IMG/VR virus record: IMGVR_UViG_3300045988_041986
Coordinates: 1 to 39,096 of that record
Direction: 5' to 3' (one strand)
Origin: a virus
Length of the DNA stretch: 39,096 nt
Below the pieces are notes generated by a model that saw nothing but the letters and a program-made list of their open reading frames with translations, had not been told where the DNA came from and did not search any database. This document shows positions 1 through 39,096 of this stretch, piece after piece (the stretch's first letter is position 1; the number at the start of each line of letters is the position of its first letter). Position numbers and translations under genes: made by a program.

Positions 1-99
1 ATGTTTTATTAGAAAATACCATTTTTTGCCCTCCTTTTCTAACATTTTTTTACCCTCTTTCACAAGAGTAATTATACCCTAATTATGCCAAAAAAAAAG
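1..99. repeat. Exact 99-bp terminal direct repeat, copy 1 (circular-assembly overlap or true DTR)
   Basis: Bases 1-99 (atgttttattagaaaatacc...ccaaaaaaaaag) are identical to 38998-39096. The holin ORF start lies inside the repeat. Confidence 0.95.
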
Positions 100-2510: not shown

Positions 2511-2843
2511 TTATCTGATAAATAAGTAAATCATCAACATCAGTGTAGCAGAATAGGCTACTGCGAGAATAAAGAAATCTCTGTTAGCTTCTTTATTGCT
2601 TTTAACAAGCTTATTGTTTAATTTCTGAAGTTCTTCCATCTTTTTTGAGTCTTCATCATAGATGCACAATATAGTTTTGTTTGCTTTTTCATAACTTTTG
2701 CATCTATCTTTTAAATCTTCATAATAGGCCTTTAAATCTTCAAATTCTTCTTTTAAATATGAATACTCCTCTTCTAGTTTCTTGTATTCAGCTTCCTTTT
2801 CTTCTACAATTTCCTGTACTTTTTCAGCGCTAAAAACTGCCAT
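2511..2843 (-). CDS. Coiled-coil protein with C-terminal membrane anchor
   Basis: E/K-rich heptad-like N-terminal part and a hydrophobic C-terminal stretch FFILAVAYSATLMLMIYLFI. RBS GAGGAGG. Confidence 0.5.
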   Translation of the reverse strand: MAVFSAEKVQEIVEEKEAEYKKLEEEYSYLKEEFEDLKAYYEDLKDRCKSYEKANKTILCIYDEDSKKMEELQKLNNKLVKSNKEANRDFFILAVAYSATLMLMIYLFIR

Positions 2844-3192
2844 CGCATCTAGCCTCCTCCTCTAATTTCTTTACATAGTCCTGAGTTCTTTGCATGGATC
2901 TTTCTATTTTTCTTTCTATGATTCTAGTAATTTCACGTACCTCTAGGTAGTCCATCACAAATAACTCACATATGCATATCAATACATCCGCAGTCTCTTC
3001 ATCTAAATGTGAAGCGTTGATAGGATCAAATCCATTACGTTTAACTTTAGATATTGCCTGTATCAATTCTGCATTTTCTTCCATTGCGATAGTGAGCATG
3101 TGCTGATCGCCCCATGTTTCGCATACTTCTTTAAGTTTAGGGCAATTCGATACAAGCGTATCGAATACCTTATTTAATTCCTGTGAATCCAT
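2830..3192 (-). CDS. MazG-like all-alpha nucleoside triphosphate pyrophosphohydrolase
   Basis: The ExxE (MEENAELIQA) and EExxD (LDEETADVLI) metal-binding helix motifs are spaced as in the MazG/dimeric dUTPase-like family. Confidence 0.5.
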   Translation of the reverse strand: MDSQELNKVFDTLVSNCPKLKEVCETWGDQHMLTIAMEENAELIQAISKVKRNGFDPINASHLDEETADVLICICELFVMDYLEVREITRIIERKIERSMQRTQDYVKKLEEEARCDGSF

Positions 3193-13293: not shown

Positions 13294-13468
13294 AACCATC
13301 TGTCGAAAAAAAAGAGTTGTCTAACTCATACTCAATTTTGAGATCTTCCTGTTCAGCATAAAGATTAAACAGCAAAGAATAGAAACTTTCAGCGTCCATA
13401 TGCTCACCGCCTTTCAATGGCTAGTATGGACTGCTTTTTTTATTTTCAATCAATCGGAGGTATTTTTT

Positions 13469-14803
13469 ATGAGAAAAAAACTGCGAGTGGCAGGATATGC
13501 TCGTGTTTCAACAGATGAACAAAAAAAATATGGCTACTCAATACAGGCACAGACTGAAGAAATAACGCAATGGTGCAACGACAACGATCATGCCCTGCAA
13601 CATATCTACATTGACGAAGGCTACTCAGCAAGCACCATGAAGCGCCCACAACTGCAAGCCATGCTGTCAAATCTGAAAAATCTTGACGCAATCGCTTTTA
13701 CACGCCTTGACCGTCTTTCACGTAACGTTCTTGAAGCTAATAAGATGCTTGAACTTCTTCAACAAAACAATGTCGCCATGATTTCCATATGTGAGGACGA
13801 TATAAACACGTCCACTGCGAACGGATTGTTCATGTTCAACCTAAAAGTCAACCTTGCAGAACATGAATTAAAAAAAGGCTCTGAACGCATCAAAGCCGTA
13901 TTTGAATACAAAGTCGCACAAGGTCAACCTATAACTGGGAACGTTCCTTTTGGTTACAGGATTGCCACAGAAAACGGCAATAAACGCATTGCAATTGATG
14001 AATCCAAAGCACCAATCGTAAAAGACATTTTCGAATCATTTCTCCTGCATCAATCAGTCCATTACACTGTCGAATACGTCAACCAGAAATACGGACTGTC
14101 TCGACCTTACATGTCCTACATGCACATATTAAAGAATGAATTTTATGCAGGATCATATCGTGGAAACTCCAACTACGCCGAGCCATACATCACGAAAGAC
14201 ACATACAATGCCGTTCAGACCGCATTACAAGCCAATATACGCACAGGAATACAACGCCATGTATATTTATTCACTGGACTGTTAAGATGCCCAGAATGCC
14301 GTTCTAAGCTTGTTGGAGTGAGCCATCCAAAAGGTGGCAAACGATATTATTACTATAGATGCAACAATGCCCACTCAGTGCATACCTGCACCCACAAAAA
14401 GCACTATGCGGAACTGGCAACAGAAAAATATCTGCTGTCTAATCTTGATGACCTGCTTAAAGATCATATAGCAACAATATCAAGCATCACATCTGAAACA
14501 AAAGACACAACCGAAAAGGAATTAAAAGAACTAAGAAAAGAACTTGATAATCTGAATTATATCTTCATCAAAAAGCGTATGCCTGTAAGTACCTATGAGC
14601 GCCTATATGCAGAAACGGAAGACAAAATAAAAAGGCTTGAATCTTTCAAGCCTCAAAGCACTGATCATCTTAACCAGTTTTTGAACAGCGGTTGGCGCTC
14701 AATATATGATAACCTCACACGTGAGAACAAGCGCACCCTGTGGCGAAATGTTCTTGATTCTGTCCATGTTTCACCTGATGGAATAGAAGTTTTCTTCAAG
14801 TAA
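13469..14803 (+). CDS. Large serine recombinase (integrase)
   Basis: MRKKLRVAGYARVSTDEQ resolvase catalytic N-terminus, a recombinase domain, a zinc ribbon CPECRSKL...YYYRCNN and a C-terminal coiled coil. GGAGG RBS. The track ORF starts at 13400. Confidence 0.9.
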   Translation: MRKKLRVAGYARVSTDEQKKYGYSIQAQTEEITQWCNDNDHALQHIYIDEGYSASTMKRPQLQAMLSNLKNLDAIAFTRLDRLSRNVLEANKMLELLQQNNVAMISICEDDINTSTANGLFMFNLKVNLAEHELKKGSERIKAVFEYKVAQGQPITGNVPFGYRIATENGNKRIAIDESKAPIVKDIFESFLLHQSVHYTVEYVNQKYGLSRPYMSYMHILKNEFYAGSYRGNSNYAEPYITKDTYNAVQTALQANIRTGIQRHVYLFTGLLRCPECRSKLVGVSHPKGGKRYYYYRCNNAHSVHTCTHKKHYAELATEKYLLSNLDDLLKDHIATISSITSETKDTTEKELKELRKELDNLNYIFIKKRMPVSTYERLYAETEDKIKRLESFKPQSTDHLNQFLNSGWRSIYDNLTRENKRTLWRNVLDSVHVSPDGIEVFFK

Positions 14804-31234: not shown

Positions 31235-32938
31235 TTAAATCATCTGGAATGTGAAGTCACCTTCATTCAAGAAATAATCCTGTTCTAGAAGGTAAATCGC
31301 ATTGATAAGTGATACAACCATATCAACCTTGCCGTTGCTCTTTTTCTTGCTGACATACATATTTTTGTTTGTGTCATATGCACATTTAGCATTCTGAAAG
31401 TTAATCTCTAGCAATTTATTTTCTGTATACTTGAATTTCTGTTTAAGTATTGCTTCTTTCATCCTCTTTGTCGGAGAATGCAAGACACTTGAATACTGTT
31501 TTATCTGAACCGTGTTATAGCCTTCATTAGCCAATTTCTGTGCAGTTGATAATGCATTCCATCTATCATATCCAATCGCCTGAATTTGCACGTTATAACG
31601 GCTCTCAATACTCAATATGAACTGCTCGACAAACGCATATGAGATAACTCTGTCACCACATGCAAACACCTTATCACTCTTCAATAGTTCTTGATAGTTC
31701 ACACGCTCTGAGATTGTTTTCTCTGTGATCCTGTCTGCTGGAATGAACGCAAAACTTTCTGCAAGAATGTTATCATCATCATCTACAGAAACCATGGCAA
31801 CAGATGTATTATCATTCGATTCTGAAAGGTCAACGCCTAAATATACAACCCTTCCGTTCCAATCAATATCTGCAACCTTGCACGCCTGAACATCCTTAAC
31901 ATCAATGAACGTTTCAGTTCCTTGCCCTTGATAGATAATATTGCAATGCTTTGTTACAAAGTTCTCTCGCTCGTTCTCAATGGCAATGGCTCTCGCACGT
32001 TTCTTGATAAGATCATCCCAAATTTCAGGGATTTCCAATGATGCAGGATTCGCCTGCTTCAAAACAAGATCGTCTGTTTCCCAGTCTGATGTTTTGTCAG
32101 GTTCATATAAAAGTGCAAAAACAGTATCGTCTTTCTCGATACCGTCCAGAACCTTCTTGGCATACGCAACTTCATCTTCAAACGGATTGTCGATTGTCGG
32201 GTATTTTGTACTGATAACGAACCCTAGTTTGTTGACAACGTTTAGCTGTCCTGATCTCATGGCTTCGACAGGATAACCGTTCGGCAATGCTCCAACTTCA
32301 TCTGCAATAAATGCGTTCGGCATACGTCCATCCATACGGTTGTTACTGTATGCTAACGGGATCAACGTGTTTTCATTCGGTTTGAATTTGATGTAGTCTC
32401 TTAACAACTTAAAACGCTTCGTTCCTTTATATTCATAAATAAGTGGACTGCTTTTGATTGTATCTGAGATTGCTTCTTTGATTTCTCTTGATAACGCACC
32501 ATCTGGCGCAACTGAAAAGAACTTTGAGAACTTTGGCTCTGTCAAAAACAAGATAATAAAGATTGTTCCGATTGTATATGTCTTGAAATTCTTTCTGCAA
32601 ATTTCCAAAAGCCCTGTCTCATATCTGCGCTTTTTCGGCTTGTCACGATATACCGTGCATAGCATGGCTGTATAAATTAGCCATTGATACCCCGTGGCGC
32701 ACTTATACATTGACTGTCCTGCTTTCAATCCCTTCGGCATGATAAGCAGTTTCAGAATATTTTCAATCTGCTGTACTTTCTTTTCTGATACGAAATACTT
32801 TCTGTCTTTTCCTTCTGCAATCTTCATCCAGTCTCGCATCTGTTTTTTGACGTATCTCGGTGTGGTTTTCTTTCTGACAGAGTTTTTGCAATATTCATAA
32901 GCCTTACTGCTCGTCACTGCCATCATCGTCACCGCCAT
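31235..32938 (-). CDS. terL: Terminase large subunit (Terminase_1 family)
   Basis: 567 aa with ATPase N-terminus (LEICRKNFKT, IADEVGA) and a nuclease C-terminal half. An alternative start at 32923 overlaps the terS stop. Confidence 0.9.
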   Translation of the reverse strand: MAVTMMAVTSSKAYEYCKNSVRKKTTPRYVKKQMRDWMKIAEGKDRKYFVSEKKVQQIENILKLLIMPKGLKAGQSMYKCATGYQWLIYTAMLCTVYRDKPKKRRYETGLLEICRKNFKTYTIGTIFIILFLTEPKFSKFFSVAPDGALSREIKEAISDTIKSSPLIYEYKGTKRFKLLRDYIKFKPNENTLIPLAYSNNRMDGRMPNAFIADEVGALPNGYPVEAMRSGQLNVVNKLGFVISTKYPTIDNPFEDEVAYAKKVLDGIEKDDTVFALLYEPDKTSDWETDDLVLKQANPASLEIPEIWDDLIKKRARAIAIENERENFVTKHCNIIYQGQGTETFIDVKDVQACKVADIDWNGRVVYLGVDLSESNDNTSVAMVSVDDDDNILAESFAFIPADRITEKTISERVNYQELLKSDKVFACGDRVISYAFVEQFILSIESRYNVQIQAIGYDRWNALSTAQKLANEGYNTVQIKQYSSVLHSPTKRMKEAILKQKFKYTENKLLEINFQNAKCAYDTNKNMYVSKKKSNGKVDMVVSLINAIYLLEQDYFLNEGDFTFQMI

Positions 32939-33278
32939 TTATAAGCTGAAGCAACGGGTCAGTGTCACCCTCGGAATTATCATCACTGGAAAATCTCGAA
33001 ATGATCTTCATTAACGTGCTGACTGTCTTATTTGCACTGTCAGTTGTTCGGTTATAATCCTGAATGGCTGGATGTGAATATACGTTTTTTCTTCCTTTTA
33101 CATATTCTTTTGTAACCAACACGCCGTCATTTTTGATTGACGATTCAAGCTCGTTTAATATTTTCAACTGTACCATGTATCGCCTGAATGTCGTAATGAA
33201 GAAGAAGTTTTTATCAACCCCAAACGCTTCTGCTTTCTGTAATATTTCTTCAGCCTGTTCATTTACTGTTTTTCGCAT
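32904..33278 (-). CDS. terS: Terminase small subunit (P27 family)
   Basis: 124 aa. FFITTFRRYMVQLKILNELESSIKNDGVLVTKEY..GRKNVYSHPAIQDYNRT is typical of P27-family TerS. It lies immediately upstream of terL. Confidence 0.75.
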   Translation of the reverse strand: MRKTVNEQAEEILQKAEAFGVDKNFFFITTFRRYMVQLKILNELESSIKNDGVLVTKEYVKGRKNVYSHPAIQDYNRTTDSANKTVSTLMKIISRFSSDDNSEGDTDPLLQLINGGDDDGSDEQ

Positions 33279-34363
33279 AATTCTCTCACCGCCTTTAATG
33301 CACTTTTGATTGTATCTTCCATATCGTAATATTTATACTCTGCAAGCCTTCCAACTGTGATCAATCCGTCACGGTCTGCAAGCTCTTTGTACTTCTGATA
33401 CAGTGCTTTGTTCTTTTCATCCTCAATCGGATAGTATCGCTCTTTCCCGATATCCCATTTCTGCGGATATTCCTTCGTGATAATGGTTGTCGGTGTCTTA
33501 ACTCCTGTGAAATGCTTGTGTTCAATAACTCTGGTATACGGCACTCTAGCATCGGTATAATTCACGACAGCATTGCCTTGATGATTTTCTTCCTTCAATT
33601 CCTCAGTTTCAAATTTCAGACTACGATATTCCAATGTTCCAAAGCAATAACCGTACCATTCATCAATAGCACCTGTCAGAACCACGTTTTTTGCCCTTTT
33701 TAGCCACTTTGTGCTTGAGCATGAACATTTATACCCTGTTACCACTTCAACGCCTTCTAGGAGTCTTTCTACGGTCTTAGAATAACCATCTACTGGAATG
33801 CCTTGGTACTTTGCATTGAAATAATTATTGTTGTATGTGAATCGCAACGGAATACGCCTGATAATACTTTTGTCAAGTTCCTTGCATGGCTTGCCCCACT
33901 GCTTTTCTGTATATCCTTTTATCAACTTATCATAAATATCCATGCCTACAAGATTTAGAACATATTCTTCAAGATTCTTCGGATTTTTACACGGTATCCG
34001 TTGTTCTTCAATCTTCTTTTTAGCTTCTTCAGGTGTTACAACGCCCCACAATTTAGAAAATGTGTTCATGTTGAACGGAAGGTTATATATTTCGCCTTTG
34101 TAATTTGCAATAGGTTCATTGATGAAATTGTTAAAACTAGCGAAACGGTTAACATAATCCCATATATCAATATCATTAGTTCTAAATATATGAGGGCCGT
34201 ATAGATGCACATTTATTCCGCTGATTTCTCTGTCTCTAATATTTCCACCTACAGCATCACGTTTTTCAAGAATAACGCATTTATAACCCTTGTCCGTCAA
34301 TTCTCTGGCAATCACTGAACCACTCAGCCCCGCACCTACAATCAGATAGTCAATGTCTTTCAT
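33263..34363 (-). CDS. glf: UDP-galactopyranose mutase (FAD-dependent)
   Basis: MKDIDYLIVGAGLSGSVIARELTDKGYKCVILEKRDAVGGN...VHLYGPHIFRTNDIDIWDYVNRF..FNNF...NYKGEIYNLPFNMNTF closely follows the bacterial Glf sequence pattern (E. coli Glf YDYIIVGSGLFG...HKYGAHIFHTNDKYIWDYVN...NLPFNMNTF). Confidence 0.9.
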   Translation of the reverse strand: MKDIDYLIVGAGLSGSVIARELTDKGYKCVILEKRDAVGGNIRDREISGINVHLYGPHIFRTNDIDIWDYVNRFASFNNFINEPIANYKGEIYNLPFNMNTFSKLWGVVTPEEAKKKIEEQRIPCKNPKNLEEYVLNLVGMDIYDKLIKGYTEKQWGKPCKELDKSIIRRIPLRFTYNNNYFNAKYQGIPVDGYSKTVERLLEGVEVVTGYKCSCSSTKWLKRAKNVVLTGAIDEWYGYCFGTLEYRSLKFETEELKEENHQGNAVVNYTDARVPYTRVIEHKHFTGVKTPTTIITKEYPQKWDIGKERYYPIEDEKNKALYQKYKELADRDGLITVGRLAEYKYYDMEDTIKSALKAVRELCEKQ

Positions 34364-35213
34364 TCTTACACCACCTTTCAGACAGAAGTTTCGGCACGGC
34401 ATTATTCCAACTAATTTCGTGATGAATCCTGAAGTCCGTAATTCCCATTGCCGAAACTTTTACAAATGAAGGGCAACACATGACACTGTAGAACGATTTT
34501 CTATATGTACCATTCTTTTTATAGATATCAGTCATTCCACCAGCATCACGCTGAGTCGCAGGAGTAATCACCTGCAAGCTCGAAATGCTATAGAACAGCT
34601 TTCCTCGTGATCCATACAAAACGCATGATGTTATATCATCATTCATACGCATGACAAATTTCACTTTGTCTTTTGCTTTTAAGAAAAACGATCCCATTGT
34701 TTTCCTGAACATTCCTTTTTGGAACCTGTCACTAGCAACTCCGCCAATGTAATCACTTGATAATGCGAATGATAAAGCAGTCAACGGCGTTGATAAAAAT
34801 AAATCAAGGCACGCATCGAATATAGCATCAAGGTCAGTGACCATCATGCTTTGTAATTTTTCATCATCTGCATATCTGATTGAGATTTCAGAAAAATCAT
34901 CATCAAGCTGTAGGTGACATTCATAGCCAAGACGTTCTGCTTCATCTTGAATAAAGTTTCTCGCAAACACGCCAACCCTTCTATCTGTGTCCATATCGCC
35001 AAGGTCGATTTTGCTTACATAGTCTCGCTTATCAAATTGAATGATGTGATTTCCAAACTCATTTCTGTACAGTTCTTCTTGATCATCCTCATTGTCTATA
35101 ACAACATACCAATCGCCTGTATAATGGAAACGTTTCAACATATTAACTGTCTTGATGTTGTTCGCTCTGCCATGCGAAAGAATAAATACAGCAAAGTTTT
35201 TATTCTGCATCAT
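34350..35213 (-). CDS. Putative GT-A-fold nucleotide-sugar transferase, paralog 2 (uncharacterised family)
   Basis: FAVFILSHGR...YTGDWYVVIDNED...GVFARN...CHLQLDDDF...DYIGGV. A hydrophobic strand followed by DDD is DXD-like. It is clearly paralogous to 35982-36827. No TM segment. Confidence 0.4.
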   Translation of the reverse strand: MMQNKNFAVFILSHGRANNIKTVNMLKRFHYTGDWYVVIDNEDDQEELYRNEFGNHIIQFDKRDYVSKIDLGDMDTDRRVGVFARNFIQDEAERLGYECHLQLDDDFSEISIRYADDEKLQSMMVTDLDAIFDACLDLFLSTPLTALSFALSSDYIGGVASDRFQKGMFRKTMGSFFLKAKDKVKFVMRMNDDITSCVLYGSRGKLFYSISSLQVITPATQRDAGGMTDIYKKNGTYRKSFYSVMCCPSFVKVSAMGITDFRIHHEISWNNAVPKLLSERWCKNERH

Positions 35214-35979
35214 CTTCACCGCCCCCACCTTCAGCGATTAAGTCCTGTACTACCTTTGTAAGCTTCACATATCCATTTGCAATTGCATCATCAATGTCAA
35301 TAATGACAAGTGCTGATTTCTCCATAAGAATCTGCATTTCTTCAGAAGCATTGGAATAATAGTCAGCAATCTTTGAATAATTGAATTTAAGATGTCTGTA
35401 AGCCCCCTTGATAAGAAAATTCTTCTGATCTTCAGAAACATTAGATGCCTTGATTTCCTTGATTAACTCGTTTGTTTTCTCATCGTCAATCAAATCCATA
35501 ATATCGACAAAATCGCCTGTCGGTTCGTACTGTGGAATGTGTTTCTTCTGGCTGTAAGGATTTTCTTCGTCTGGAAGCTCAACGTCCATAGTATCATCAT
35601 CCTTGAAAAGATCATCACCGAACTGAGTCATATCCATCATGATGTCGCTCAGTTCTTCAGCAAGTTTAGTGTTATCCCATGTACTATACTCAGACACCTT
35701 ATTATCTGCAATCCTGAATGCCTTTATCTGGTCTTCTGTAAGGTCGTCAGCCACAATACAAGGGACCTCGTCAATGCCTAGCTTCTTACATGCTTTAAGT
35801 CTTGTATGACCTGTGATCAATACGCCGTCACCACTCACAACGCACGGAACTTTGAAGCCGAACTCCTCAATGCTTTTTGCTACATAGTCAACAGCTTCAT
35901 CATTGTTTCTCGGATTGTTCTCATACGGAATCAAGTCCTTAACTTTCTTGTAAACGATATTCATTTTTTTGCTTTCCAT
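35200..35979 (-). CDS. ParB/Srx-fold N-terminal domain protein with a non-methyltransferase C-terminal domain
   Basis: VKDLIPYENNPRNNDEAVDYVAKSIEEFGFKVPCVV...LITGHTRLKACKKLGIDEVPCIV...IKAFRIADNK matches the ParB-like nuclease domain seen at the N-terminus of phage ParB-methylase fusions. The C-terminal 140 aa are unrecognised. Confidence 0.7.
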   Translation of the reverse strand: MESKKMNIVYKKVKDLIPYENNPRNNDEAVDYVAKSIEEFGFKVPCVVSGDGVLITGHTRLKACKKLGIDEVPCIVADDLTEDQIKAFRIADNKVSEYSTWDNTKLAEELSDIMMDMTQFGDDLFKDDDTMDVELPDEENPYSQKKHIPQYEPTGDFVDIMDLIDDEKTNELIKEIKASNVSEDQKNFLIKGAYRHLKFNYSKIADYYSNASEEMQILMEKSALVIIDIDDAIANGYVKLTKVVQDLIAEGGGGEDDAE

Positions 35980-35981
35980 TT

Positions 35982-36827
35982 TTACGCCCTGCCTTTCTTA
36001 TATTGCCCGCTTAATATTTTAGGATATGCGTTCTCAGATACTACAGTCCAGTCGTATCCATCTCCTGACTCTTTCAGCTTTATGCAATCAGGGTGGAACA
36101 TAACGACGTAATACCTCAACCTGTAAGAGCCTATCTTGTCGTAGTCCTCAATACTACCGCCACTGCTTTTTGATTTTCGCTTTGGGATCCATACATCATA
36201 TGTGCTCATAACAGGAATGAATTTGAATCCTGCATGACCTTTTTGTGCTTCATCGACAACCGTAATTATGTCGTCTGAAAATCTGCTTCGCCATTTGATT
36301 TTGTTTGACGTTCTGAGAAAAAAACTGTTCATTACAGCCCTGTTTGCTTTTCCACTTTCAAACGTTGGCACACCGCCGATATAATCAACGGCATTTCCGA
36401 ATCCTAAACACTGCACAGGTGCTTCATCAAAGTATTGGCATATTCCATCAAACAGCCTGTCAAGTTCTCTAGCCTTGATTCCTCTTAAATGCCCATCATC
36501 ATTATATCTGTACGAAAGATTTTCAAGATCATCGTCAAGCTCTAGGTAGTAAGTCAGCCTGTTTTTCTCTGCAACCTTCAAACATTGGTTGCGTGCAAAC
36601 ACTCCACATGCCTTACTGCCACCCAAGTCTCCAGTATCGAAGTCTTCTTCTTTGTGGAATACATAAACATCAGCCCCGTACCTTTCAAGATAATCTGGTA
36701 GCGTTTTGTCTTCATCATCAACAACGATATAGATTTTTCCTGTATATCCACACTCACGAAGCACCTTTACCGTACTGCACTCAGGTCTGCCATGTGAGAT
36801 TACGATACACGCAAAGTCTTTTCGCAT
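35982..36827 (-). CDS. Putative GT-A-fold nucleotide-sugar transferase, paralog 1 (uncharacterised family)
   Basis: FACIVISHGR...YTGKIYIVVDDED...GVFARN...YYLELDDDL...DYIGGV. RBS GAGGAAGGGAG. No TM segment. Confidence 0.4.
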   Translation of the reverse strand: MRKDFACIVISHGRPECSTVKVLRECGYTGKIYIVVDDEDKTLPDYLERYGADVYVFHKEEDFDTGDLGGSKACGVFARNQCLKVAEKNRLTYYLELDDDLENLSYRYNDDGHLRGIKARELDRLFDGICQYFDEAPVQCLGFGNAVDYIGGVPTFESGKANRAVMNSFFLRTSNKIKWRSRFSDDIITVVDEAQKGHAGFKFIPVMSTYDVWIPKRKSKSSGGSIEDYDKIGSYRLRYYVVMFHPDCIKLKESGDGYDWTVVSENAYPKILSGQYKKGRA

Positions 36828-36845
36828 ATGCTCTCTCCCTTCCTC

Positions 36846-36865
36846 AATGTTCCACGTGGAACATT
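36846..36865. promoter_or_regulatory. 20-bp perfect palindrome AATGTTCCACGTGGAACATT abutting the RBS of the first module gene
   Basis: The reverse complement is identical to the forward sequence. It ends 4 nt from GAGGAAGGGAG. Confidence 0.6.
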
Positions 36866-36878
36866 TTTCGCTGTTTTT

Positions 36879-36893
36879 GTTTCTTTTTGAAAC
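36879..36893. promoter_or_regulatory. Perfect copy of the GTTTC-N5-GAAAC palindrome upstream of the sugar-transfer module
   Basis: GTTTCTTTTTGAAAC is followed on the minus strand by the same A-tract spacer architecture as cassettes A-C, but not by a recognisable -35/-10. Confidence 0.5.
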
Positions 36894-36913
36894 ATAAAAA
36901 CGGCCATATCCAC

Positions 36914-36943
36914 ATTATAGCGTGAAATTTGCCGTTTTTCCAA
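36914..36943 (-). promoter_or_regulatory. Candidate promoter (TTGGAA, 18 bp, TATAAT) for the sugar-transfer module / packaging operon
   Basis: The -35 is at 36938-36943 and the -10 at 36914-36919 on the minus strand, in the 207-bp HNH-to-module gap. Confidence 0.4.
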
Positions 36944-37034
36944 AAAACCATAAGATTTTTTAAATTTTGTGTTCATTCCTTTGGGCGTTTCATCTCACTG
37001 TCTCACCAGAAAATGCCCGTTACCATGGGGGGGA

Positions 37035-37412
37035 TTATTTCAGCCTGTCTATCCTCTGCCTTGCTAACTTCTTTAAATACTTTTTGTCAATCATTCCTGC
37101 ATCAGCTAACCTGTGACAGTCTTTGCATAAACAGATAAGGTTATCATCATCCAACCATAGGTCTGGATTGTCTTTCAGCTTCTCTATGTGATGTACCTCA
37201 ACATTTCTGTAATTGTAGATACCTTTATCCTTACATACTTCACACAGATAGTTTGCATCTTCTCTAATCTGTTTGCTTTTATCTGTCCATGCGCTCTTGC
37301 TTCTCAGCCTTGACTCTTTGTAACTGTACTTGTAGTGCTTCTTTTCTACCTTGCACACATACCCTTTCGGATGTATCCTTCCACATCTGCTACAAGCATA
37401 ATAGCCTTGCAT
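37035..37412 (-). CDS. HNH endonuclease (packaging-associated type)
   Basis: CSRCG...C, then CEVCKDKGIYNYRNVEVHHIEKLKDNP...DDNLICLCKDCH, gives an HNH core with flanking zinc-binding Cys pairs. Confidence 0.85.
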   Translation of the reverse strand: MQGYYACSRCGRIHPKGYVCKVEKKHYKYSYKESRLRSKSAWTDKSKQIREDANYLCEVCKDKGIYNYRNVEVHHIEKLKDNPDLWLDDDNLICLCKDCHRLADAGMIDKKYLKKLARQRIDRLK

Positions 37413-38815: not shown

Positions 38816-39019
38816 TTATTCACCCCTTTTATAATTTGCTGAACTAATCTGTAAACATGCACCAATGCAAGTGCCAATTGCCGAAATAGTTCCTGCAATT
38901 GCTTCTGCATAACTCCATCCCCAGATTTTTCCGAGCGTGATAATTAACACCGAAAATGCGTTTGTTCCAACAAGTGCTACCCACTTTAAAATGTCATATG
39001 TTTTATTAGAAAATACCAT
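38816..39019 (-). CDS. Holin (Phage_holin_1 / Dp-1-like small two-TM type)
   Basis: 67 aa. TYDILKWVALVGTNAFSVLIITLGKIWGWSY...IAGTISAIGTCIGACLQISSANY resembles Gram-positive phage holins. GGAGGG RBS. It is the first gene of the lysis cassette. Confidence 0.65.
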   Translation of the reverse strand: MVFSNKTYDILKWVALVGTNAFSVLIITLGKIWGWSYAEAIAGTISAIGTCIGACLQISSANYKRGE

Positions 39020-39096
39020 TTTTTGCCCTCCTTTTCTAACATTTTTTTACCCTCTTTCACAAGAGTAATTATACCCTAATTATGCCAAAAAAAAAG
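38998..39096. repeat. Exact 99-bp terminal direct repeat, copy 2
   Basis: Identical to 1-99 by direct comparison. Confidence 0.95.

Follow-up and report, generated by a model that had tools for sequence, protein, structure and literature searches.

The window analysed here is the whole 39,096-nt stretch of the IMG/VR virus record IMGVR_UViG_3300045988_041986, and our subject is a group of four of its genes, which encode two related glycosyltransferases, a ParB-like protein and a sugar-nucleotide enzyme. In order of reading, these are GT1 (281 aa; 35982..36827, minus strand), a ParB/Srx-type N-domain protein, hereafter ParB (259 aa; 35200..35979, minus strand), GT2 (287 aa; 34350..35213, minus strand) and Glf, also called UGM, a UDP-galactopyranose mutase by its Pfam GLF match (33263..34363, minus strand). 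The preliminary description of this DNA had placed two paralogous genes on either side of a ParB-like gene, and both are present at those positions as minus-strand open reading frames (ORFs). The gene between them matches Pfam ParB_N (E = 2e-5) and PHROG 620 (E = 2e-67). GT2 has an alternative GTG start at 35228, giving 292 aa, and the Glf ORF is extendable to 34402. All genes between 33263 and 37412 lie on the minus strand, and the order is HNH, gap, GT1, ParB, GT2, Glf, TerS and TerL.

The genes are closely packed. The ATG of ParB lies 2 nt after the GT1 stop codon, overlaps of a few codons join ParB to GT2, GT2 to Glf and Glf to TerS, and no terminator-like sites were found between GT1 and the packaging genes. 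The overlaps and the absence of such sites indicate that GT1-ParB-GT2-Glf forms a single transcription unit with the terminase genes.

Our analysis places both glycosyltransferases in a known family, TAGT (TET-Associated Glycosyltransferase), to which they belong by profile similarity. The Pfam profile PF20691 (TAGT), whose gathering score is 27.5 bits, matched GT1 with 75.4 bits (E = 8e-21) and GT2 with 124.9 bits (E = 5e-36), and the matches covered about 190-204 of the 205 profile positions. Both proteins also matched PHROG 842, “beta-glucosyl-HMC-alpha-glucosyltransferase” (HMC, hydroxymethylcytosine; E = 3e-37 for GT1 and 3e-63 for GT2). All listed homologs likewise carry PF20691, and an exhaustive HMMER search with a limit of E <= 1e-3 recovered representatives of 1524 clusters formed at 50% identity, showing that the family is large. 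Since both proteins score far above the gathering score, match PHROG 842 and, in the case of GT2, have TAGT proteins as top structural matches in BFVD, the suggestion that they form an unrecognised family does not hold. The context after which the family is named, a TET/JBP (5mYOX) enzyme or another source of hydroxylated pyrimidine, was not found here; it is a contextual and not a sequence-defining feature.

The structural comparison agrees with the earlier guess of a GT-A transferase. The AlphaFold model of GT2, built from a 64-sequence alignment, had a mean predicted local distance difference test score (pLDDT) of 91.7 and a predicted template-modelling score of 0.90. In a Foldseek search of the PDB, all 33 matches with E <= 1e-3 were GT-A-type nucleotidyl-sugar enzymes, nearly all of them glycosyltransferases, with E of about 1e-5 and template-modelling scores of about 0.45-0.5. 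They included ColGalT1, LARGE1, chondroitin polymerase, GpgS, SunS, GnT-I, GalNAc-T2, RmlT, hyaluronan synthase, the galactofuranosyltransferase GfsA and SpsA. In BFVD, GT2 matched best with proteins annotated TAGT, with E down to 9e-31, and a T-even-type beta-glucosyl-HMC-alpha-glucosyltransferase was matched with E = 1e-9. Pfam assigns the TAGT family and structure the GT-A fold, and no non-transferase fold was assigned by either route. For GT1, a GT-A fold is likely given its 35% identity to GT2. A sequence search of the PDB with the glycosyltransferase profile gave nothing meaningful, the single match being a Rio2 kinase at E = 0.5.

GT1 and GT2 are paralogous over their full length, as had been estimated by eye at about 30% identity; BLASTP put the identity slightly higher, at 35% (51% positives, 287 aligned columns), a similarity far beyond chance with E = 1e-47. 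The blocks FAxx(V/I)(I/L)SHGR, YTG..Y.V.D.ED, GVFARN, L.LDDD, DYIGGV, SFFL, DDI and GG..(D/E).Y.K.G.YR, all of them listed in the preliminary description, were found in both proteins. In GT2 numbering, the residues invariant across the 64-homolog alignment are H14, G15, R16, Y31, G33, D40, D43, Y49, F60, K62, D70, D73, R85, D105, G158, D193, G204, G226, P248 and P274. GT1 and GT2 both keep all of them, and therefore neither looks degenerate. The DDD motif on which the preliminary description had laid weight is conserved among the homologs: D105 is invariant, D104 and D106 are each present in at least 90% of the 64 sequences, and the close homolog P0002 is an exception with DDV. Phage GT-A DNA glycosyltransferases share the signature R...DDD...EDY/F (bioRxiv 10.1101/2023.12.21.572611). 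The motifs conserved in the 64 homologs agree with this signature, and its active-site elements are present in both paralogs as R16, D104-D105-D106 and D192-D193, of which R16, D105 and D193 are invariant. The spacing of D40, D104-106 and D193 also recalls D39, D98-99 and D191 of SpsA, an inverting enzyme of glycosyltransferase family GT2, which we regard as a lead only; such a layout, if inverting here too, would imply a beta linkage.

Natural fusions of TAGT domains to a sulfotransferase (PF03567), to an S-adenosylmethionine (SAM)-dependent methyltransferase or to a second TAGT were observed (P0296, P0330, P0334, P0283 and P0275). Such fusions fit glycan tailoring and hint at sulfated or methylated glycans as possible products.

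The two paralogs appear to have different standing. We built a neighbour-joining tree of 106 TAGTs, namely the two window proteins and those in the fetched loci. GT2 fell in a clade that holds all Glf-linked TAGTs, in agreement with the proposed connection to the neighbouring Glf, while GT1 joined a handful of further “extra” TAGTs on a deeper branch apart from that clade. The order GT1-ParB-GT2-Glf is found in the close relatives L008, L010, L011 and L012 (L numbers denote loci of our collection), and ParB-GT2-Glf without GT1 in the relatives L009, L013, L016 and L004-L007. Relative to L013 (6864-6865), the window segment 36843..36011 is missing cleanly, and the flanks are 89-91% identical. 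The last ~30 nt of GT1 are kept in GT1-less L013 as a leader of ParB. The presence or absence of GT1 as a cassette and its deeper position in the tree indicate that GT2 is the core enzyme, to which GT1, a paralog of older descent, has been added in some phages only. Duplication within the operon, as assumed in the preliminary description, and a recent tandem duplication in particular were rejected on the same two grounds. Two sequential sugar-transfer steps by the pair are nevertheless a reasonable inference.

The protein encoded between the two enzymes is ParB. The Pfam ParB_N match of 24.9 bits is just below the 26.3-bit cutoff; in addition to PHROG 620, residues 2-139 matched PHROG 498, a family of ParB-methyltransferase fusions, with E = 5e-42. 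Sequence matches in the PDB were Noc and Spo0J (about 2e-4 to 1e-3), and Foldseek matches were Noc, ParB-CDP, KorB and PadC (about 1e-5); in the matches that superposed well (root-mean-square deviation about 2-4 A), only about 90-120 columns, those of the N-terminal domain, were covered. In the model, whose overall pLDDT is 66.5, the N-domain is predicted with confidence, residues 114-151 form an acidic linker that is disordered, and the C-domain is helical and modelled with moderate confidence. Following the linker is an invariant Y-(S/T)-x-K-x-x-I-P-Q-Y-E-x-T-G motif (residues about 140-155), and residues about 185-236 form a strongly conserved helical C-domain, RH..FNY..IA.YY....MQ.LME.SALVIID, that was assigned to no family. 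This motif and the C-domain may be a surface for contact with the glycosyltransferase.

ParB is 82% identical to its homolog in Lactobacillus phage c5 (ORF1), and GT2 is 61% identical to that of c5; thus, ParB is better conserved than the enzyme. The ParB-GT2 DNA is ~72% identical to that of Lactobacillus delbrueckii phages from dairy. The closest relatives among prophages, however, were located in gut metagenome-assembled genomes (MAGs) of Clostridia and Lachnospiraceae, which suggests exchange of the module between phages of distant Firmicutes. In phage PMBT4 (MG913376.1, L092; 3238-4011), a 257-aa “adenine-specific methyltransferase” is 81% identical to ParB and has a ParB_N domain only, so that its name is probably a mis-annotation derived from ParB-methyltransferase fusions. 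Long TAGTs were considered as possible fusions to ParB. Pfam detected no ParB_N domain in the N-terminal extensions of P0242, P0257 and P0299, P0242 and P0257 showed no BLASTP similarity to the window ParB, and no clean Rosetta-stone fusion was established. A few proteins with both TAGT and ParB_N (P0149, P0444) are 93-95% identical to the window ParB, and P0149 is also 89% identical to GT1; they may be read-through or frameshift calls over abutting genes.

The gene at 33263-34363 encodes a true UDP-galactopyranose mutase. Its product matched PF03275 with 249.6 bits (E = 3e-74) and NAD_binding_8 (PF13450) with 63.8 bits (E = 2e-17), and has a GAGLSG motif near the N-terminus; the GLF domain and the FAD-binding Rossmann feature are thus both present. 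Glf was found only beside TAGTs of the GT2 clade, whether GT1 was present or not. Among all 91 related loci that we analysed, the optional sugar-nucleotide enzyme was Glf, encoded directly downstream of the TAGT, in 20, an NAD-dependent epimerase/dehydratase in 11 and a radical SAM enzyme in seven, the epimerase or radical SAM enzyme occupying the Glf slot in other TAGT clades. The radical SAM enzyme (PF04055, CxxxCxxC) stands beside a ParB-linked TAGT in all seven loci, which include L089 (8855-9814), L062 (8854-9813), L083, L087, L039 and L077; it could serve in sugar tailoring or in generating the acceptor. Matches to Glf in Streptococcus suis “phage” records (e.g., L099, YS43, OP662531.1) were set aside, as they lie at record ends beside transposase and copper-resistance genes and look like flanking DNA of the host or of an integrative and conjugative element, not a phage glycosylation module.

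The association of ParB with TAGT extends far beyond the window. A search of IMG/VR with the TAGT profile, in which loci were chosen by similarity to GT2, gave 80 loci, and in essentially all of these the gene immediately upstream of the TAGT is a ParB homolog, in many cases with overlapping reading frames. The ParB cluster was present in 84 of the 91 loci analysed, and the remainder are mostly contig edges. Across the 91 loci, the genes run from an optional HNH through ParB and between one and five TAGTs to TerS and TerL; a sugar-nucleotide enzyme, where present, usually fills the slot after the TAGT. In cultured phages, ParB-TAGT pairs usually lie beside the terminase. They were found in the Lactobacillus delbrueckii phages c5, phiLdb, LL-Ku, Ld17 and PMBT4, L. 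gasseri phage phi jlb1, Nocardia phage NTR1, a Porphyromonas gingivalis phage, lambdoid phages of E. coli and Salmonella, and the haloarchaeal (Haloarcula) virus HHTV-2; the pair recurs in phages of diverse hosts at 35-45% TAGT identity. ParB is therefore an obligatory partner of these TAGTs, not a bystander, a relation overlooked in the preliminary description, as was DNA as the likely class of acceptor. In the 115-kb contig IMGVR_UViG_3300028048_000089 (L047, 5797-11221), one ParB is followed by five TAGTs, four in tandem and the fifth about 660 nt further; such an array suggests that a long or branched glycan is built. In L053 and L054, the order is ParB-TAGT-ParB-TAGT.

The E. coli ortholog consists of ynaK (ParB/Srx) and an adjacent “hypothetical protein” (TAGT), and occurs in 1580 of 5426 complete genomes (about 29%). 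The pair, for example at 1563269-1564985 of NZ_CP023820.1 (L003, 5208-6924), lies between the lysis cassette with trkG and the terminase. No literature on the function of ynaK/ydaY was found.

Phage c5 also bears on the timing of expression. Its 31.8-kb genome has no annotated integrase, the mature genome begins with cos (the cohesive-end site)-ParB-TAGT, and the annotated late promoter precedes holin-lysin-HNH. The presence of the module in the late transcription unit of a phage without an annotated integrase points to a function in the lytic cycle.

The remainder of the window provides the genomic setting. Its first 99 nt are identical to its last 99 nt (1..99 versus 38998-39096), and because such a terminal repeat is the signature of a closed circular k-mer assembly, the window is a complete, circularly closed phage genome of ~38,997 bp. 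The record begins in the early region, not at cos or the attachment site. Preceding GT1 is a 207-nt intergenic gap (36828..37034), which is probably the cos and/or late-promoter region; the cos part is suggested by analogy with the related cos phage c5, whose mature genome ends between HNH and ParB. The gap contains a sigma-70-like site, TTGGAA-18-TATAAT, at 36943-36914, and promoter-like sites in the region were not enriched compared with shuffled sequence. The HNH endonuclease gene (37035..37412, minus strand) was identified by Pfam HNH (E = 1e-7) and PHROG 144 (E = 1e-21), and the position is filled likewise in relatives; upstream of it are holin and endolysin genes. On the other side, TerS, the terminase small subunit (32904..33278, minus strand; its start overlaps the end of Glf), was assigned from its place in the gene order and from its homology to TerS proteins in relatives. 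TerL, the large subunit (31235..32938, minus strand), was assigned because its homologs in relatives carry the Pfam domains TerL_ATPase and TerL_nuclease. Downstream of TerL follow portal, protease and capsid genes.

Other annotated functions of the genome are a serine integrase (13400-14803), a cI-like repressor, Erf, an exonuclease, the single-stranded DNA-binding protein SSB, NinB, DUF1064, a replication initiator, a DnaC-like loader, head and tail genes, holin and endolysin. With its serine integrase, the virus is a temperate phage. A 120-aa ORF at 2830-3192 (minus strand) gave a weak MazG match (E = 5e-4; 20.8 bits, below the 22-bit cutoff); MazG-type nucleotide pyrophosphohydrolases at times accompany manipulation of the nucleotide pool in modified-DNA phages and are common elsewhere too. 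An exact-peptide scan of GTDB genomes for the host gave no match. A narrower alignment found three prophage loci, in MAGs of Clostridia, Lachnospiraceae and Candidatus Fimenecus, and the hosts are probably of the Clostridia/Lachnospiraceae type.

The module can be compared with several characterised systems. Phage GT-A/TAGT enzymes act on 5-hydroxymethylcytosine (5hmC) or glucosyl-5hmC in DNA (bioRxiv 10.1101/2023.12.21.572611; PMC13390438), and the phage T6 TAGT adds a sugar to glucosyl-hmC (PMC13390438). GT1 and GT2 share the TAGT family, the GT-A fold and the R...DDD...(E/D)D motifs with the T2/T6 beta-glucosyl-HMC-alpha-glucosyltransferase and with the GT-A enzymes of C5-methyltransferase/5mYOX clusters, and the presence of multiple glycosyltransferases recalls the known clusters, in which several act in succession. 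Unlike those systems, the complete genome studied here has no TET/5mYOX enzyme, C5-methyltransferase or dCMP/dUMP hydroxymethylase; the module has an obligatory ParB neighbour and a position directly before the terminase, and is carried by small temperate or dairy siphoviruses; and the donor is probably UDP-galactofuranose (UDP-Galf), not UDP-glucose. More distant GT-A relatives are JGT of trypanosomes, which glucosylates 5-hydroxymethyluracil (5hmU) in DNA and depends on JBP hydroxylases, and GREB1 of animals, whose TAGT domain acts on protein. Neither is ParB-linked, and both share only about 9% sequence identity with the phage enzymes (bioRxiv 10.1101/2023.12.21.572611).

The closest functional precedent for ParB with a DNA-modifying enzyme is the 5mYOX/ParB class. 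A subclass of phage thymine dioxygenases (5mYOX) requires an adjacent ParB homolog, specifically on dsDNA, and the commonest neighbours of 5mYOX genes are glycosyltransferases, ParBs and terminases (PMC13229309). In the 5mYOX176/ParB176 class, a short ParB with an N-terminal nucleotide-binding and a C-terminal domain is encoded beside the modifying enzyme (O'Toole et al., PNAS 2026, PMC13229309). Here too, a ParB/Srx N-domain homolog is fixed beside an enzyme, a likeness drawn from the description of that class; unlike in that class, the partner is a glycosyltransferase and the genome has no dioxygenase. The PHROG 498 ParB-methyltransferase fusions have the same N-domain family, the catalytic partner there being a fused SAM methyltransferase and here a separate, translationally coupled glycosyltransferase. 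This suggests that the ParB N-domain is a general DNA-targeting or DNA-activating module for late, post-replicative DNA modification.

For the sugar supply, the precedent is Rhizobium phage RL38J1 (Pootjesviridae), whose UGM is proposed to supply UDP-Galf for DNA galactosylation in the galactosyl-5-hydroxycytosine pathway, with further glycosyltransferases extending the glycan (Lee et al., NAR 2026, PMC13326640). No report of galactofuranose (Galf) on the DNA of any other phage was found in the literature. RL38J1 is a large myovirus in which the acceptor, 5-hydroxy-dCMP (5hodCMP), is made before replication by a thymidylate-synthase homolog; in contrast, the present 39-kb siphovirus is without such a synthase, and its glycosyltransferases are ParB-linked TAGTs. 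GT1 and GT2 as proteins are ordinary new members of a described family. The novelty lies in the arrangement, in which a TAGT coupled to ParB is joined by an enzyme for its own supply of UDP-Galf and, optionally, by a second TAGT, ahead of the terminase genes of a complete genome that has no recognisable hydroxylase.

We favor ParB-assisted, post-replicative glycosylation of phage DNA, and we give it about an even chance, with a variant that includes a cryptic hydroxylase counted in. Late in infection, Glf would convert host UDP-galactopyranose to UDP-Galf. ParB would load on or open the replicated phage dsDNA, activating GT2, which would transfer galactofuranose to the primary acceptor. Where present, GT1 would add a second sugar, either to that sugar or at a second site, and the glycosylated DNA would be packaged and resist host nucleases. 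In this scheme we infer the DNA acceptor, UDP-Galf as the GT2 donor, the order of action and the anti-restriction role. A nucleic acid acceptor is indicated because ParB-TAGT is common to phages of Gram-positive, Gram-negative, actinobacterial and archaeal hosts. DNA is favored since the sole constant partner is a ParB-type protein, since the ParB domain is otherwise fused to DNA methyltransferases, since the characterised phage TAGT/GT-A enzymes act on DNA, and since expression is late, beside the packaging genes.

Several observations weigh against DNA as the acceptor. Every ORF of the closed genome was scanned against Pfam and/or PHROGs, and TET/JBP (5mYOX, PF12851), a thymidylate-synthase homolog and a C5-methyltransferase were not found among them; phage c5 is likewise without an annotated dioxygenase, thymidylate-synthase or C5-methyltransferase candidate. 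Without a hydroxylase-type gene, the only acceptor chemistry known for DNA glycosyltransferases has no visible source. Moreover, GT1 and GT2 are not basic (pI about 6.2) and ParB has a pI of 4.4; the TAGT family includes a protein glycosylator, GREB1 (PMC7968844); for phages with ParB-TAGT only, a search of the literature found no experiments that report modified DNA; and the strict linkage to ParB covers the GT2-like subfamily, not all TAGTs. A hidden dioxygenase was considered and rejected: the unannotated non-structural ORFs of at least 100 aa matched no dioxygenase or thymidylate-synthase profile. With at most 178 aa and 0-5 histidines, they have neither the length nor the histidines expected of an Fe/2OG (iron/2-oxoglutarate) dioxygenase, and a TET/JBP or thymidylate-synthase fold would not fit into them. 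Of the gene clusters that recur in five or more of the 91 loci, those that were annotated included no dioxygenase or thymidylate-synthase homolog either. In a large survey of phage glycosyltransferases, about 65% of the contigs had no neighbouring 5mYOX or thymidylate synthase and were set aside by the authors; the present module belongs to this unexplained part.

Within glycosylation of phage DNA, two routes to the sugar can be considered. ParB-TAGT may be self-sufficient, ParB exposing a canonical base to which GT2 attaches Galf directly, e.g., at an exocyclic amine or a ring N or O, with GT1 extending it, so that no pre-installed hydroxyl is needed; we regard this as possible but doubtful. 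The absence of a recognisable hydroxylase in the closed genome, the annotated clusters and c5 makes the ordinary route unlikely in our view, namely that 5hmU, 5hmC or 5-hydroxycytosine (5hoC) is made by a missed enzyme, divergent phage or host, and is then O-glycosylated by GT2 and GT1. Divergent dioxygenases do exist, as thousands of contigs were found with phage 5mYOX profiles and without Pfam TET/JBP annotation, and glycosyltransferases (31%) and ParBs (27%) are the domains commonest with 5mYOX (PMC13229309). Furthermore, the acceptor of every characterised phage TAGT/GT-A enzyme is a hydroxyl, which belongs either to a modified pyrimidine or to a sugar.

Acceptors other than DNA must also be considered. 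GT2 and GT1 might O-glycosylate a virion protein, a packaging protein or ParB itself, which would then be scaffold or substrate. Because GREB1 O-GlcNAcylates the estrogen receptor ER-alpha, the TAGT fold can take proteins (PMC7968844); the module lies in a late operon beside packaging and head genes, neither enzyme is basic, the acidic linker and invariant Y-(S/T)-x-K-x-x-I-P-Q-Y-E motif of ParB are a possible site of modification or docking, and the Foldseek matches include the protein- or peptide-modifying ColGalT1, SunS and GalNAc-T2. However, the carriers differ in TerL family (416-aa and 567-aa clusters) and virion type and span 30-kb siphoviruses to 190-kb Vibrio phages, and ParB alone, not any structural protein, is conserved with the module. 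Together with the fusion of this ParB N-domain family to DNA methyltransferases and the action of all characterised phage family members on DNA, this makes a protein acceptor rather unlikely. An envelope acceptor, i.e., wall teichoic acid, cell-wall polysaccharide or lipopolysaccharide, modified as by TarP or the gtr seroconversion operons, seems to us quite improbable. Its purpose would be to block superinfection or to keep progeny off debris. Galf is classically an envelope sugar and is common in Gram-positive wall polysaccharides, the phage is temperate (serine integrase at 13400-14803) with hosts of the Clostridia/Lachnospiraceae type, and the Foldseek matches include wall-polymer enzymes, RmlT and a galactofuranosyltransferase. 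In addition, of the structures solved, TarP comes closest to the phage GT-A DNA glycosyltransferases (bioRxiv 10.1101/2023.12.21.572611). In contrast, no envelope polymer is shared by the hosts of the Gram-positive, Gram-negative, actinobacterial and haloarchaeal phages that carry ParB-TAGT, and ParB has no role in envelope chemistry. The module is translationally coupled to the terminase in a late operon and is not an independently expressed moron, it occurs in c5 without an annotated integrase, and a flippase, GtrA/GtrB or a membrane component was not detected in the profile scans of the genome. The marks of TarP- and GtrABC-type systems, namely expression of their own in the lysogen, partners such as membrane proteins or flippases, and an envelope acceptor particular to the host, were not seen here.

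This study also provides insights into DNA modification in small phages. A conserved module of ParB, TAGT and a sugar enzyme stands before the terminase in complete 30-40 kb genomes without a recognisable source of 5hmC, 5hmU or 5hoC. Natural variants with and without GT1, for example the window's genome and IMGVR_UViG_3300045988_045331, the cultured Lactobacillus carriers and the ortholog in ynaK-type prophages of E. coli, such as vB_EcoS-666R9, offer experimental handles. Were DNA the target, the acceptor would have to come from a new chemistry or from a hydroxylase that has escaped detection, and many phages of the gut and of dairy would carry galactofuranose on their DNA, with a bearing on restriction evasion, targeting by Type IV restriction, nanopore and enzymatic sequencing of viromes, and phage engineering. 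Direct glycosylation of an unmodified base from a UDP-sugar, if true, would add a new class to the known DNA modifications, one that thousands of small temperate phages would share, prophages of the ynaK type among them.

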